Source: Escherichia phage Rtp
Length of the DNA: 46,219 nucleotides
Reading direction: 5' to 3' (one strand)
Sequence record: NC_007603.1
Under the pieces are notes generated by a model. The model was given only the letters and a program-made list of their open reading frames with translations, had not been told where the DNA came from and did no database searches. The position numbers and the translations under genes are program-made. Shown piece by piece: positions 3,152-8,428 of the stretch. Within the stretch, counting starts at the first letter, position 1. Each line of letters opens with the position of its first letter.

Positions 3152-3442
3152 ATGAAAACTATTACCGCATTTATCGCAAAAGATGTAATTGACGGAGAAA
3201 TGTCATTATTCGCGTTCGAGCATAAAACGGGATCGCACTGGCACACTTACAGTCATTACATCGTTATCCCAACCAGCGCCTGCACTGGAGACTCACTAAA
3301 TGAGAAGCTGCGTAATTTAATTGAGTTAGTTGAGATAATGGAAGGTTGCGAGGAAAATAACAAAGTACCACGCATGTTCGATATGATTGATCCGGTTTTC
3401 ATTGAGTCTTTAGAGCTTGATTATGATGTGGTATCTAGTTGA
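3152..3442 (+). CDS. hypothetical protein (96 aa)
   Basis: ORF track; SD AAGGA upstream; downstream of a cassette. Confidence 0.55.
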   Translation: MKTITAFIAKDVIDGEMSLFAFEHKTGSHWHTYSHYIVIPTSACTGDSLNEKLRNLIELVEIMEGCEENNKVPRMFDMIDPVFIESLELDYDVVSS

Positions 3443-3887: not shown

Positions 3888-4030
3888 TGAGCTTCACTGA
3901 ATATGCAATAGCATGCGAAAGGCTGGTCTTTGATATGAAGACCTTCCACTGGTTCATCATTAAAGATTTAATTAAGCCTTATAAGCAAGGCGTCACGCCT
4001 GAACAGTTTGTTAAGTCATTCTACAAATAG
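3887..4030 (+). CDS. small ORF (47 aa)
   Basis: Translationally coupled start; TAG stop shared with the palindrome at 4028. Confidence 0.4.
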   Translation: MSFTEYAIACERLVFDMKTFHWFIIKDLIKPYKQGVTPEQFVKSFYK

Positions 4031-4100: not shown

Positions 4101-4283
4101 ATGAAAAAAGCTAGTGAACTATTCGAGCACTACGTTGAAGTTTTAGGAATGGACATTGATGATGCGGCTTTGGAGCTTTTACGTCTTGGATACCCACCGA
4201 GAGAGATACCACCAATAAGAGATCTTGACTGCTCCGAGGTTATTGAGTTTATTTTCAGTCAGTTACGAACTAATGATAACTAA
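4101..4283 (+). CDS. hypothetical protein (60 aa)
   Basis: ORF track; SD GAGAGATTGAGAG leader. Confidence 0.5.
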   Translation: MKKASELFEHYVEVLGMDIDDAALELLRLGYPPREIPPIRDLDCSEVIEFIFSQLRTNDN

Positions 4284-4892: not shown

Positions 4893-4969
4893 GCCCCGCT
4901 AGCTCAATTGGATAGAGCAACGACCTTCTAAGTCGTAGGTTACTGGTTCGAATCCAGTGCGGAGCGCCA
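4893..4969 (+). tRNA. tRNA-Arg (anticodon UCU)
   Basis: Hand-folded cloverleaf: acceptor GCCCCGC/GCGGAGC (one C-A mismatch), D-arm GCTC-AATTGGATA-GAGC, anticodon arm ACGAC-CTTCTAA-GTCGT, T-arm ACTGG-TTCGAAT-CCAGT, encoded CCA. Confidence 0.7.
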
Positions 4970-4996: not shown

Positions 4997-5182
4997 ATGA
5001 AAATTGTAACATTTATCGTAAAAGATTCAGAAACAGGCTCCGTTCAGAAGTTTAACGCAAAGATGGACTTCACGAAAACCCGAGTTATCAAAGGCTCACT
5101 TAATGGAGTTTCTGTATCAGCGCAGCTCCCGCATGGCTTCGAACACTTATTCGGAAAAGAGTCATCAAATGACGATGAGTAG
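4997..5182 (+). CDS. hypothetical protein (61 aa)
   Basis: ORF track; SD GGGGGA upstream. Confidence 0.45.
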   Translation: MKIVTFIVKDSETGSVQKFNAKMDFTKTRVIKGSLNGVSVSAQLPHGFEHLFGKESSNDDE

Positions 5183-5366
5183 CTTGTGGGATGTGAAGTT
5201 GTCCATTCGCTTAATGGGCCGCTCGTGCAAGAATTGCACTCAAGATTACATCGCGTCAGTTGCCGCAATCAGCGCTGAGGATGCGGTAGAGAAAGTAAAG
5301 GAGTTGTCGGGCGCTGACCCTGATACTCACAAATTCTTAGTAGCTTACGTTCGTGAGCGAAAGTAA
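5169..5366 (+). CDS. hypothetical protein (about 65 aa; start uncertain)
   Basis: ORF track 5103..5366 trimmed to in-frame ATG 5169 overlapping the end of the upstream ORF. Confidence 0.35.
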   Translation: MTMSSLWDVKLSIRLMGRSCKNCTQDYIASVAAISAEDAVEKVKELSGADPDTHKFLVAYVRERK

Positions 5367-5409
5367 AAAGTGTTATACCCTCGTTAAGTTTCGTTTCTCT
5401 CGTTGTTTT

Positions 5410-5433
5410 AGCCCTCGCTTGAGGGCTTTTTTT
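5410..5433 (+). terminator. rho-independent terminator
   Basis: GCCCTC-GCTT-GAGGGC hairpin followed by a T7 run. Confidence 0.6.
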
Positions 5434-5443
5434 CGCCTGCATG

Positions 5444-5472
5444 TTGACAATAATATATGGGTGCGTTAGTAT
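5444..5472 (+). promoter_or_regulatory. near-consensus sigma70 promoter (TTGACA-17bp-TAGTAT)
   Basis: Hexamers read directly. Confidence 0.5.
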
Positions 5473-5513
5473 TAACTCATCGGGGCGACCCACTAACCAG
5501 AAGGAGACTCAAA

Positions 5514-5738
5514 ATTATTACATTAAAAGCAATTCACAAAGACGGTAGCGAGCAGGTTTTTGAAGTCCATAAGTTCGGATACAACGTAAAATCAAATAGG
5601 ATTGACGCGGTTGATGATGCTGGCCCATTCACAATTTGCATGGGTGAGTTGATTTCAGTCGTGTACGCAATGAACTCGAGAGGCTCAACAGTTGGTAGGT
5701 ACTTCAATACCGGTATAGACAGAGCAAAAGCAGAGTAA
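5514..5738 (+). CDS. candidate ORF with non-canonical AUU start (about 74 aa), or alternatively a non-coding transcript
   Basis: AAGGAG at 5501-5506, in-frame ATT 7 nt downstream; the ORF-track ATG 5457 lies inside the promoter with no SD; unit bounded by promoter and terminator. Confidence 0.25.
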   Translation: MITLKAIHKDGSEQVFEVHKFGYNVKSNRIDAVDDAGPFTICMGELISVVYAMNSRGSTVGRYFNTGIDRAKAE

Positions 5739-5744
5739 ACACCA

Positions 5745-5768
5745 AGCCCCTTAATTGGGGCTTTTTTA
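5745..5768 (+). terminator. rho-independent terminator
   Basis: AGCCCC-TTAATT-GGGGCT hairpin plus T6. Confidence 0.6.
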
Positions 5769-5812
5769 CGCCTGTAATATGGTATAATCTACCATCAACA
5801 AAGGAGGATTAA

Positions 5813-6319
5813 ATGAGCAAAGCAGCATTAAAGATGGGTGAGGGAAATTTCAAGGCGCTCTACAACAAGAAGTATGGCGACATTGCTATGGTGGCAATCA
5901 ACCGCAAGTACACGCCTGAGGAGGTTTTCGATTTCGCCGTTCGATACTTCTCCTGGGCAGAGAGTGCAGCAATCAAGGCAGCCGAGACAGCGTCATTCCA
6001 GGGCGTAGTAACTGAACACCTCATACACAAGCCTCGAGTGTTCACCTTAACGGGTTTGGCGCTCTTCATGGGTGTTAACATCAATAGATTCGCTCGCTGG
6101 CGTACTGAGGCTGGATACTCTGATGTGATGGAATTCATTGATAACGTAATCTACGAGCAGAAATATCAGCTTGGTGTTGCAGGCATCATTAACTCCACCA
6201 TTGTTGGTAAAGAGTTGGGAATCGACAAGCCGCAGGAGATCACCATTAGCAATAACTCTACGGCTAACGATGTTGATAGCATGAAGGAAGCGCTTGAATC
6301 TGTGATTGGTAAGCTGTAG
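5813..6319 (+). CDS. putative terminase small subunit
   Basis: 168-aa ORF immediately upstream of the large terminase; SD AAGGAGG; extended -10 TGgTATAAT upstream; call by position and size only. Confidence 0.5.
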   Translation: MSKAALKMGEGNFKALYNKKYGDIAMVAINRKYTPEEVFDFAVRYFSWAESAAIKAAETASFQGVVTEHLIHKPRVFTLTGLALFMGVNINRFARWRTEAGYSDVMEFIDNVIYEQKYQLGVAGIINSTIVGKELGIDKPQEITISNNSTANDVDSMKEALESVIGKL

Positions 6320-6387: not shown

Positions 6388-6864
6388 ATGAATTGGCATG
6401 ATATTTTTGATTATGATGGATGTAATTTATACAGAAGGGATTCTGGAAAAAAGGCTGGAACAAAAGCGGGCCCTAGAGGTTACATTCAGTGCAGAGTTGG
6501 TGGTGGACTACCTAAGGTTTATGCTCACAGGATTATATGGGAGATGCACAATGACAAGATACCTAACAGCATGGTTGTTGACCACATTAACCACATATAC
6601 GACGACAATAGAATTGAAAACCTAAGGTTAGTAACAGTTAAGGAAAATTCTAGCAACATTAAGAGATCAAAGAGAAATACAAGTGGCATACAAGGAGTTA
6701 GGAGAAGGAGTGATAACGGAAATTGGTACGCGGACTTAAGAGTTGATGGAAAGCTAAGGCAAATGCCAATGCGACATTGCTTTGAAGACGCAGCAGCCGA
6801 TAGGATATATCTTGAAGTGTACCACGGGTTTCATCCAAATCATGGAGCAATAGTAAATGAGTGA
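6388..6864 (+). CDS. HNH endonuclease with AP2 domain (homing endonuclease-like)
   Basis: HRIIWEMHNDKIPNSMVVDHINHIYDDNRIENLRLV motif; paralog of 21464..21979; sits between terS and terL. Confidence 0.8.
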   Translation: MNWHDIFDYDGCNLYRRDSGKKAGTKAGPRGYIQCRVGGGLPKVYAHRIIWEMHNDKIPNSMVVDHINHIYDDNRIENLRLVTVKENSSNIKRSKRNTSGIQGVRRRSDNGNWYADLRVDGKLRQMPMRHCFEDAAADRIYLEVYHGFHPNHGAIVNE

Positions 6865-8428
6865 CCTAATCGTATGGGATGAGCTGACTCACGCTGAGAA
6901 GATGGCTATAAAGGCCATCTCTGAGCATAGTTTCGAGGGATTCTTGCGTTGTTTCTTCCAGATAACTCAGGGTGAGAGATTTAAAATGAATTGGCATGCG
7001 AAATACCTTTGCCGCGTCATAGATGAGATTCTTGAGGGTAAGAGAAAGGACACCATCATAAACGTAGCTCCTGGGTCAGCCAAAACCGAACTGTTTAGCA
7101 TCCATTTCCCTGTTTATAGCATGATTAAGATTAAGAAGGTTAGGAATCTTAGCTTGTCGTTCTCTGACTCACTTGTTAAGCGCAACTCCAAGCGCGTCCG
7201 CGACCTGATTAAGTCAAAAGAGTTTCAGGAACTTTGGCCATGCTCCTTTGGAACATGCAGGGATGACGAGATTCAGGTTCTGGATGAGAATGGTAAAGTT
7301 AGATTTGAGTCTATATCTAAGGCAATGGCGGGACAGGTGACGGGAAGCAGGGGTGGCTACATGACCGATGATTACAGTGGTTGCATAATGCTGGATGACC
7401 CGCTAAAACCTGATGATGCGCTGAGTAATGTAAGGAGGGAGGCTGTCAACATGCTTCTCAAGAACACAATTCGCTCGCGTCGCGCTAGCTCGGTAAAAGG
7501 GAAGGAAACGCCAATAATTGCTGTGCAGCAAAGACTTCATGTTCTGGATACTAGCCACTTCATGGAGTCAGGACAAATGGGCATCAAGTTCGATGTGGTG
7601 AAAGTTCCTGCCATAGTCACGGAGGATTACGCCGACACGCTTCCTGATTGGATCAAACAACAATTTATTGATGATGTTCTTTCATCACCATTTGTAGAGC
7701 GGGATGGGGTTAAGTATTACAGCTATTTTCCAGCAAAGGAATCAATAGAAGACTTAATGGCCATGCGAGACGCTGACCCTTACACATTCCTTAGTCAGTA
7801 CGCTCAAGAACCCGTAGCGCTTGGTGGCAATCTTATTAACGTGGATTGGTTCCAGCGCCTTAGTGATACATTCAGACCTCCAGCTAAGTACGATTATAGA
7901 TTCATAACTTGCGACACGGCGATGACTACAAAGAGTTATAGCGACTTCTCTGTACTCCAGTTGTGGGGCTATAAGGACGCTAAGATTTACCTGATAGACC
8001 AGCGCAGGGGTAAGTGGGAAGCTCCGGAGTTGGAAGCTGAACTGCTGGATTTCGAGAAGAAATCAAGGTCAACCAGTCAGTCAGATGGCATCCTTAGAAA
8101 GATTATTATCGAGAAGAAAGCATCCGGCATCGGACTCATTCAGTCGGCAGGAAGGGTAATGCGAACACCCATAGAGCCATACGTACCTGATAACGACAAG
8201 CTAACCAGGGTAATGAGCGCACTGCCGCAGATTAAGGCTGGCAATGTAGTTCTTCCAGAATCAGCGCCGTGGTTAAGCGGATTGCTTACTGAGATTGCAG
8301 CTTTTACGGCAGATGACTCGCATAAGCACGATGACCAAATTGACTGTCTAACAATGGCAATCAACCTGGTACTTAACATTGCCGATGATCCTAAGGCTCG
8401 ACTAATGCGCATAGCTGGAATGAAATAG
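6857..8428 (+). CDS. terminase large subunit
   Basis: 523 aa; N-terminal ATPase region and C-terminal nuclease-like region (ITCDTAMTT...DFSVLQLWG), typical terminase architecture. Confidence 0.85.
   Translation: MSDLIVWDELTHAEKMAIKAISEHSFEGFLRCFFQITQGERFKMNWHAKYLCRVIDEILEGKRKDTIINVAPGSAKTELFSIHFPVYSMIKIKKVRNLSLSFSDSLVKRNSKRVRDLIKSKEFQELWPCSFGTCRDDEIQVLDENGKVRFESISKAMAGQVTGSRGGYMTDDYSGCIMLDDPLKPDDALSNVRREAVNMLLKNTIRSRRASSVKGKETPIIAVQQRLHVLDTSHFMESGQMGIKFDVVKVPAIVTEDYADTLPDWIKQQFIDDVLSSPFVERDGVKYYSYFPAKESIEDLMAMRDADPYTFLSQYAQEPVALGGNLINVDWFQRLSDTFRPPAKYDYRFITCDTAMTTKSYSDFSVLQLWGYKDAKIYLIDQRRGKWEAPELEAELLDFEKKSRSTSQSDGILRKIIIEKKASGIGLIQSAGRVMRTPIEPYVPDNDKLTRVMSALPQIKAGNVVLPESAPWLSGLLTEIAAFTADDSHKHDDQIDCLTMAINLVLNIADDPKARLMRIAGMK

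Follow-up and report, generated by a model that had tools for sequence, protein, structure and literature searches.

A Putative Accessory Gene of Coliphage Rtp Carrying ATT at the Start-Codon Position of Its Relatives

Introduction

Coliphage Rtp is a member of the Drexlerviridae (Braunvirinae, Rtpvirus); T1-like phages are virulent. The window analyzed here is the whole of its genome (NC_007603.1; 46,219 bp), in which a short unit, oriented on the plus strand, consists of a promoter, a leader, the 74-codon gene rtp18, and an intrinsic terminator. The question that this locus raises is how, if at all, the gene is translated: the Shine-Dalgarno sequence is followed by ATT where an ATG would be looked for. 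A first-pass annotation, made from the sequence alone, had offered two solutions, an AUU-initiated gene comparable to infC of E. coli and a non-coding RNA, and the public databases hold a third, a longer protein beginning at an ATG farther upstream.

Layout of the transcription unit

The left border of the cassette is the intrinsic terminator of the upstream gene (5410–5433; AGCCCTC-GCTT-GAGGGCT plus T7), a hairpin of seven pairs, five of them GC. It exists also in phages without the cassette and, in an RNAalifold analysis of 11 cassettes, is kept with two compensatory pairs. A repeat search revealed a 17-nt direct repeat, the left copy of which (GGGCTTTTTTTCGCCTG) occupies 5423–5439 and the right copy (GGGCTTTTTTACGCCTG) 5758–5774. 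Between the two copies is found a sigma-70-type promoter (TTGACA-17-TAGTAT, 5444–5472; −35 hexamer 5444–5449, −10 hexamer 5467–5472), which matches the consensus at 10 of 12 positions and is the top match of a 6-kb scan. This match is not by itself above chance: Markov simulations gave 12.6 ± 3.8 sites of at least 10/12, and the whole Rtp genome contains five. Nine of the 11 aligned cassettes have TTGACA as their −35 hexamer, the exceptions being L004 (TTGACG) and L009 (CTGACA); the −10 hexamer reads TAGTAT, TAGCAT, or TATTAT. We infer that transcription of the unit starts near 5479.

The leader possesses the element GGGGCGACCCACTAACCA (5482–5499), which is invariant or nearly so in the cassette alignment, and an invariant Shine-Dalgarno sequence, AAGGAG (5501–5506), lying 7 nt ahead of the start position. 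The latter is occupied by ATT (5514–5516), and a second in-frame ATT follows directly at 5517. The coding sequence, as corrected here on the evidence of a protein-family match, dN/dS values, and a structural model, extends from 5514 to 5738 and comprises 74 codons plus TAA (5736–5738). The cassette's own intrinsic terminator (5744–5767; AAGCCCC-TTAATT-GGGGCTT, with a T-run at 5762–5767) is likewise kept in the cassette alignment; its hairpin, with the core stem GCCCC/GGGGC (5746–5750/5757–5761) and the loop TTAATT, is predicted both in the transcript fold and by RNAalifold. The terminator scanner gave this hairpin on the minus strand only, because two Ts were counted into the stem. Hardly any variation is seen among 10 orthologous cassettes in the promoter hexamers, the leader, the Shine-Dalgarno sequence, or the terminator, and it is this conservation as a set that renders the elements credible. 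The promoter and strong terminator with which the first-pass annotation had bracketed the unit were correctly placed.

Rtp18 and its protein family

The ORF beginning at 5514 matches the PHROG family phrog_3909 (E = 5e-11), with residues 2–63 aligned to profile positions 2–60 of 64. A search of 1.84 billion proteins using the family profile yielded 38 representatives, and in those of about 60–110 amino acids residue 1 falls on profile position 1 (in one case, residue 3 falls on position 2). The family is composed of widespread phage proteins of roughly 60–100 residues sharing the motif M-x-T-(L/I)-K ... Y-x-M-N-x-x-G-x-T. In the 24-sequence family alignment M1, T3, K5, E13, M53, N54, G57, T59, and Y63 are invariant, and the Rtp sequence holds every one of these from T3 through Y63. 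[quoted passage not shown]

The family profile also matches the giant proteins P0014 (3117 residues), P0021 (2651 residues), and P0026 (1366 residues), in up to 24 stretches. The β-hairpin motif of the family (VY.MN..G.T.G.Y) would therefore resemble a repeat unit of some giant proteins.

Modeling with AlphaFold2 from a 15-sequence alignment gave a mean pLDDT of 86.9 and seven β-strands, and Rtp18 is predicted to be a small seven-stranded β protein. The BFVD model of the UniProt entry for this protein (Q333G6) and that of the ZL19 homolog superpose on the AlphaFold2 model; the public Rtp entry differs in being 19 residues too long at its N-terminus, and the Rtp gene differs from its family in having ATT at the start-codon position. 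The predicted fold is a compact all-β domain of seven strands, and the best PDB matches of the model are of the small β-barrel kind (Sm/Hfq, YaeO/Rof, DUF903 lipoproteins, and SH3-like proteins). Pfam and PADLOC returned nothing significant for Rtp18, and its structural neighbors in BFVD are uncharacterized phage proteins throughout. No mention of rtp18 was found in the literature searched; the original Rtp genome paper lay outside that search.

Pairwise dN/dS values within the rtp18 family range from 0.04 to 0.6, and the Rtp ORF is open over all 74 codons from 5514. The evidence favors a protein-coding gene under purifying selection, not a small RNA. The presence of a promoter and terminator together with the lack of an ATG would fit a non-coding RNA of about 290 nt, but membership in a protein family, purifying selection, and a confidently predicted fold all argue against this, and the RNA-directed analyses were negative throughout. 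A scan of 5300–5900 against Rfam (E ≤ 1) gave no match above threshold, two sub-threshold terminator-like matches lying over the terminator. The fold of the whole transcript shows no excess stability over shuffled sequence (z = −0.95), and shuffles of the initiation region are more structured than the region itself (z = +1.23). Covariation across homologous regions, to which the first-pass annotation had pointed as a check, lends no support to an RNA: the covariation term in the RNAalifold analysis of 11 cassettes is only −1.09 kcal/mol, and compensatory pairs are confined to the upstream terminator and one pair within the coding sequence. The small-RNA reading was rejected on these grounds, and we hold it to be extremely improbable.

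The public 93-residue gene model

The ORF 5457–5738 is identical to "hypothetical protein rtp18 [Escherichia phage Rtp]", a protein of 93 amino acids (NCBI; UniProt Q333G6). Its ATG (5457–5459) is the sole canonical in-frame start upstream of codon 43, and the model has been used in both NCBI and UniProt; were it correct, the protein would be made on read-through transcripts arriving from upstream. We consider this very improbable. The ATG, which the first-pass annotation had rightly rejected as lying inside the promoter and having no Shine-Dalgarno sequence, is found within the promoter spacer, flanked by the two hexamers, a short distance 3′ of the upstream terminator. The 19 extra codons of the public model span the −10 hexamer and the leader, both nearly invariant. 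An in-frame ATG at this position is present in Rtp and GaoY1-9D only, and is thus missing from most homologs; in GaoY1-9D the gene has been annotated from the canonical ATG, and the N-termini of the family align at residue 1. Because transcription would begin near 5479, ATG 5457 would not be part of the cassette's own mRNA, and we regard the 93-residue model as an artefact that probably arose from the need of an ORF caller for an ATG. The public gene model of rtp18 (Q333G6) should be corrected from 93 to 74 amino acids. When a start codon is mutated, ORF callers may invent an N-terminal extension, in this case one that runs across a promoter.

The GenBank record of JeanPiccard (MZ501080.1; L001) lists three short CDSs over its cassette (1641–1953). 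Two of these (1641–1748 and 1742–1879) are in other frames, and the third (1876–1953), though in frame, covers just a small piece of the true ORF. The ortholog itself, intact with 79 codons (1714–1953) and beginning with ATG, is unannotated; in JulesPiccard it is annotated correctly.

The start codon

All 25 other loci examined, 17 of them close and eight distant, possess ATG in the column of the Rtp ATT; the canonical start of the phrog_3909 family is thus absent in Rtp, unlike in every other member considered. The close homologs include those of the GenBank phages JeanPiccard, JulesPiccard, IME253, ZL19, IMM-001, and GaoY1-9D, as well as Logan, ENA, and JGI assemblies. Their sequence at the start is gaaggagattcaaaATGATT/ATGATG..., and that of Rtp is gaaggagactcaaaATTATT. 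Since the ATG of the homologs, the start of the profile, and the invariant N-terminus all align at 5514, the start position is fixed there, and the AAGGAG, 7-nt spacing, and in-frame ATT recognized in the first-pass annotation are confirmed, together with the resulting frame of 74 codons. The difference amounts to a G>T substitution at 5516, found in Rtp alone, and the ATT has the appearance of an ATG start altered by point mutation.

Across the Rtp genome, 5514 is the only site combining a strong Shine-Dalgarno sequence, an ATT, and a long ORF that is not explained by an adjacent ATG. No second copy of rtp18 was found in the genome. Scans of the IMG/VR and JGI metagenomes for the leader pattern revealed no other carrier of the ATT, the matches being Rtp itself and ATG-bearing relatives.

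The ATT is known from one deposited Rtp sequence; a copy in IMG/VR (L013), also a contig of 46,219 bp, has an identical gene, and presumably represents the same deposited genome. With one independent Rtp sequence in the collections searched, and a column that is invariant apart from this one base, an error of sequencing or assembly must be considered, in which case the real phage would have ATG and the ATT would belong to the deposited record only. This is improbable: other private substitutions occur nearby (5465 and 5508), which mark Rtp as a lineage truly of its own, a change of G>T is nothing unusual, and the site is not in a homopolymer and bears nothing to mark it as error-prone.

Translation from AUU

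In E. coli reporters AUU initiates at 1–2% of the level of AUG, and two E. coli genes, infC (for IF3) and pcnB (for poly(A) polymerase I), are confirmed to start with it (bioRxiv 10.1101/063800). In vitro, AUU mRNAs with an optimized initiation region are translated, though they are poor competitors of AUG mRNAs, and context matters (PMC5499595). Given the strong Shine-Dalgarno sequence, the ideal spacing, and the open leader, low-level initiation at AUU 5514, or possibly at 5517, is most likely in Rtp. The reading that we prefer, and to which we assign a probability of about 55%, is that rtp18 is a self-contained accessory gene starting at 5514 in which a private ATG>ATT change has produced a strongly down-tuned allele, dependent on weak AUU initiation. 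The transcript from the cassette promoter would begin near 5479, downstream of ATG 5457; AAGGAG would recruit ribosomes, and initiation would be possible only at the near-cognate AUU with fMet-tRNA, giving a protein that begins M-I-T-L-K.... Initiation would reach no more than a few percent of what an ATG gives, and the outcome would be a hypomorphic allele of a dispensable gene.

The same mutation may instead have ended useful translation, leaving a null allele or young pseudogene whose ORF is open only for want of time to decay. Compared with L004 and L006, the Rtp branch shows seven nonsynonymous and five synonymous private changes, and the implied ratio of about 0.4 is above that of the sister branches and below neutrality, the numbers being small. 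Four of the nonsynonymous changes cluster at codons 42–46 (V>I, Y>C, L>M, and D>G), where they hit an otherwise conserved Y and L. The radical character of Y>C and D>G, both private and at conserved positions, favors a null allele, as do the evident dispensability of the gene, the whole cassette being missing in most related phages, and the low efficiency of AUU, just 1–2% of that of AUG (bioRxiv 10.1101/063800). Yet none of the 74 codons is disrupted, and no damage is seen in the promoter, Shine-Dalgarno sequence, or terminator; the nonsynonymous to synonymous ratio of 7:5 is less than the neutral value of ~3.6:1, though not to a statistically significant degree; and from a strong promoter and Shine-Dalgarno sequence even 1–2% may still give appreciable protein. 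The changes on the Rtp branch fit relaxed constraint, as in a dead gene, as well as they fit a working gene. In the stretch from promoter to start, Rtp has three private changes, L008 three, and IMM-001 four; the Rtp figure is not exceptional and therefore gives no signal either way on relaxed constraint. On balance we view a null allele as unlikely, while allowing it real weight.

The AUU start of infC is conserved among enterobacterial orthologs. Were the AUU of Rtp a regulatory device of the kind found in infC and pcnB, expression of rtp18 would be adaptively low or sensitive to IF3. The perfect Shine-Dalgarno sequence, ideal spacing, and unstructured leader are compatible with this, non-ATG starts occur next door in the orthologous upstream gene (TTG in Rtp, CTG in JeanPiccard), and the two E. 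coli genes furnish confirmed precedents (bioRxiv 10.1101/063800). The AUU is, however, found at none of the 25 other loci, and the leader shows no compensating change, which makes an adaptive AUU start quite improbable. A conserved device in the style of infC is ruled out, as no ortholog has AUU. Homology supports the start position chosen in the first-pass annotation; the comparison with infC is not supported insofar as a designed AUU start is meant. Rtp would resemble infC and pcnB in having AUU at the start position behind a Shine-Dalgarno sequence, with low initiation and discrimination by IF3 to be expected; it differs in that its AUU is private and recent, the orthologs all having AUG, and in that no autoregulatory logic is evident.

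The locus offers a natural experiment on the worth of an AUU start in phage infection, the same promoter, leader, and Shine-Dalgarno sequence being coupled to ATG in the relatives and to ATT in Rtp. A point mutation in the start codon of a dispensable phage gene is in itself an ordinary event and leaves current understanding unchanged.

A shared leader element

The core of the leader element, GGGGCGACCCACT (5482–5494), is identical at 13/13 positions in seven other loci, which span Braunvirinae cassettes, the CsrA/GH108 phage type (L021, L118, and L119), and a T7-like phage (L022). The identity is longer in six of these seven, where it takes in the 18-nt GGGGCGACCCACTAACCA. Copies outside Rtp are situated at 3183–3200 of L021 and at 3969–3981 of L022, with others in L118 and L119. 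The distance from core to start codon is 19 or 20 nt in six loci and 25 nt in L118. The coding sequences of the loci sharing the leader are 48–58% identical to that of Rtp at the nucleotide level, and 35–47% identical at third positions. Among the cassettes, almost nothing varies from the −10 hexamer through to the Shine-Dalgarno sequence, and the coding third positions are close to saturation.

Folding of the leader and RNAalifold both predict a possible GGG-GCGA-CCC mini-hairpin, the loop of which is of the GNRA type and after which comes ACUAACCA; the hairpin would lie approximately 3 nt from the predicted 5′ end. Covariation cannot test this structure because the stem never varies. The phage backgrounds sharing the leader GGGGCGACCCACU are T1-like, T7-like, and a third type, with AACCA usually found after the hairpin. 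The promoters upstream differ by phage background, and at the T7-like locus there is no sigma-70-type promoter match. The leader keeps its rough distance to the start codon whatever the promoter, which suggests a role at the RNA level.

The motif is not universal in the family, being absent from L024 and L120, while L121 and L122 have a different hairpin followed by UUAACCU. A search of IMG/VR for the 13-mer followed by ATG gave 95 loci, and none of those fetched encodes a member of the family; IME253 (L014) and L015, already known as family members, were skipped in this check. The other matches in IMG/VR are probably chance events, on a rough estimate made with no computed expectation.

Preservation of the leader in three phage backgrounds, while the coding sequence has drifted to less than 60% identity, raises the prospect of a mobile translational control element. 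More specifically, the leader might be an undescribed cis-regulatory RNA element that moves with its gene between unrelated phages and that, together with the strong ribosome binding site, sustains meaningful AUU initiation in Rtp; this proposal is speculative and rather unlikely. Among candidate roles, the leader could possibly serve as an operator through which the small β-barrel protein controls its own translation, or it could be a stabilizer of the 5′ end.

The accessory cassette

The Rtp cassette measures 335 bp and is bounded by the 17-nt direct repeat, whose two copies are 94% identical and spaced 335 nt apart. The site is empty in SU57 and CEB_EC3a: a single copy of the repeat is present, and the upstream terminator directly abuts the promoter of the small terminase gene. 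Phage records matching the flanks number 84, and the gene is present in seven of these. Its absence from this site in most related phages makes the cassette moron-like, and rtp18 is, to judge from this distribution, a dispensable accessory gene. The GC content across the unit is 0.41–0.42, compared with 0.44–0.49 in the flanks, a small difference.

Distant members of the family reside in other phages. In a T7-like genome, one is placed between the genes for the capsid and the tail tube; in another type of phage, others adjoin genes for CsrA, GH108 endolysin, and LPD38; and some lie elsewhere. On the T7-like contig L022 the gene is bracketed by near-identical hairpins at 3940–3957 and 4227–4244 (GGTGACC-TTCG/TCTG-GGTCACC plus TCT). 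This duplication echoes the duplicated terminator segment of Rtp and hints at a common route of insertion at hairpins.

A moron is a transcription unit in its own right that has been inserted among conserved genes (PMC3594210). The Rtp unit would be akin to these in having its own predicted promoter and terminator, in its location between conserved features (the terminator of the upstream gene and the small terminase promoter), in being present or absent among close relatives, and in that relatives of its gene are found in unrelated phage types. It differs in two respects: Rtp, being virulent, has no prophage state in which the unit might be expressed, and the GC content of the unit is not clearly deviant.

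Neighboring genes

Downstream of the cassette are the genes for the small terminase (5813–6319), an HNH endonuclease (6388–6864), and the large terminase (6857–8428). The HNH gene lies between the two terminase genes and overlaps the start of the large terminase gene; it is missing at this site in IME253 and SU57, present in the metagenomic relatives L008 and L010, and typical of a mobile homing-endonuclease insertion. Directly 3′ of the cassette terminator, an extended −10 promoter without a good −35 hexamer (TGgTATAAT, 5780–5788) precedes the small terminase gene, and it is kept in phages with and without the cassette.

In IME253 and SU57 the upstream gene (phrog_2919) has an ATG start, preceded by an AAAGGAG of its own. 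Its start codon is TTG in Rtp (5180–5186, TAG c TTG) and, as annotated, CTG in JeanPiccard (L001 1380–1386, TAG a CTG); L002 and L017 were also included in this comparison. Both the TTG and the CTG lie 1 nt past the stop codon with which an additional, inserted ORF ends (4997–5182 in Rtp), an arrangement that suggests termination–reinitiation coupling. The 87-residue ORF listed for Rtp at 5103–5366 probably overstates the gene, which is likely to be 5184–5366. Approximately 0.5 kb upstream of the cassette is a tRNA-Arg(UCU) gene (4893–4969), which is kept in JeanPiccard, SU57, and CEB_EC3a.
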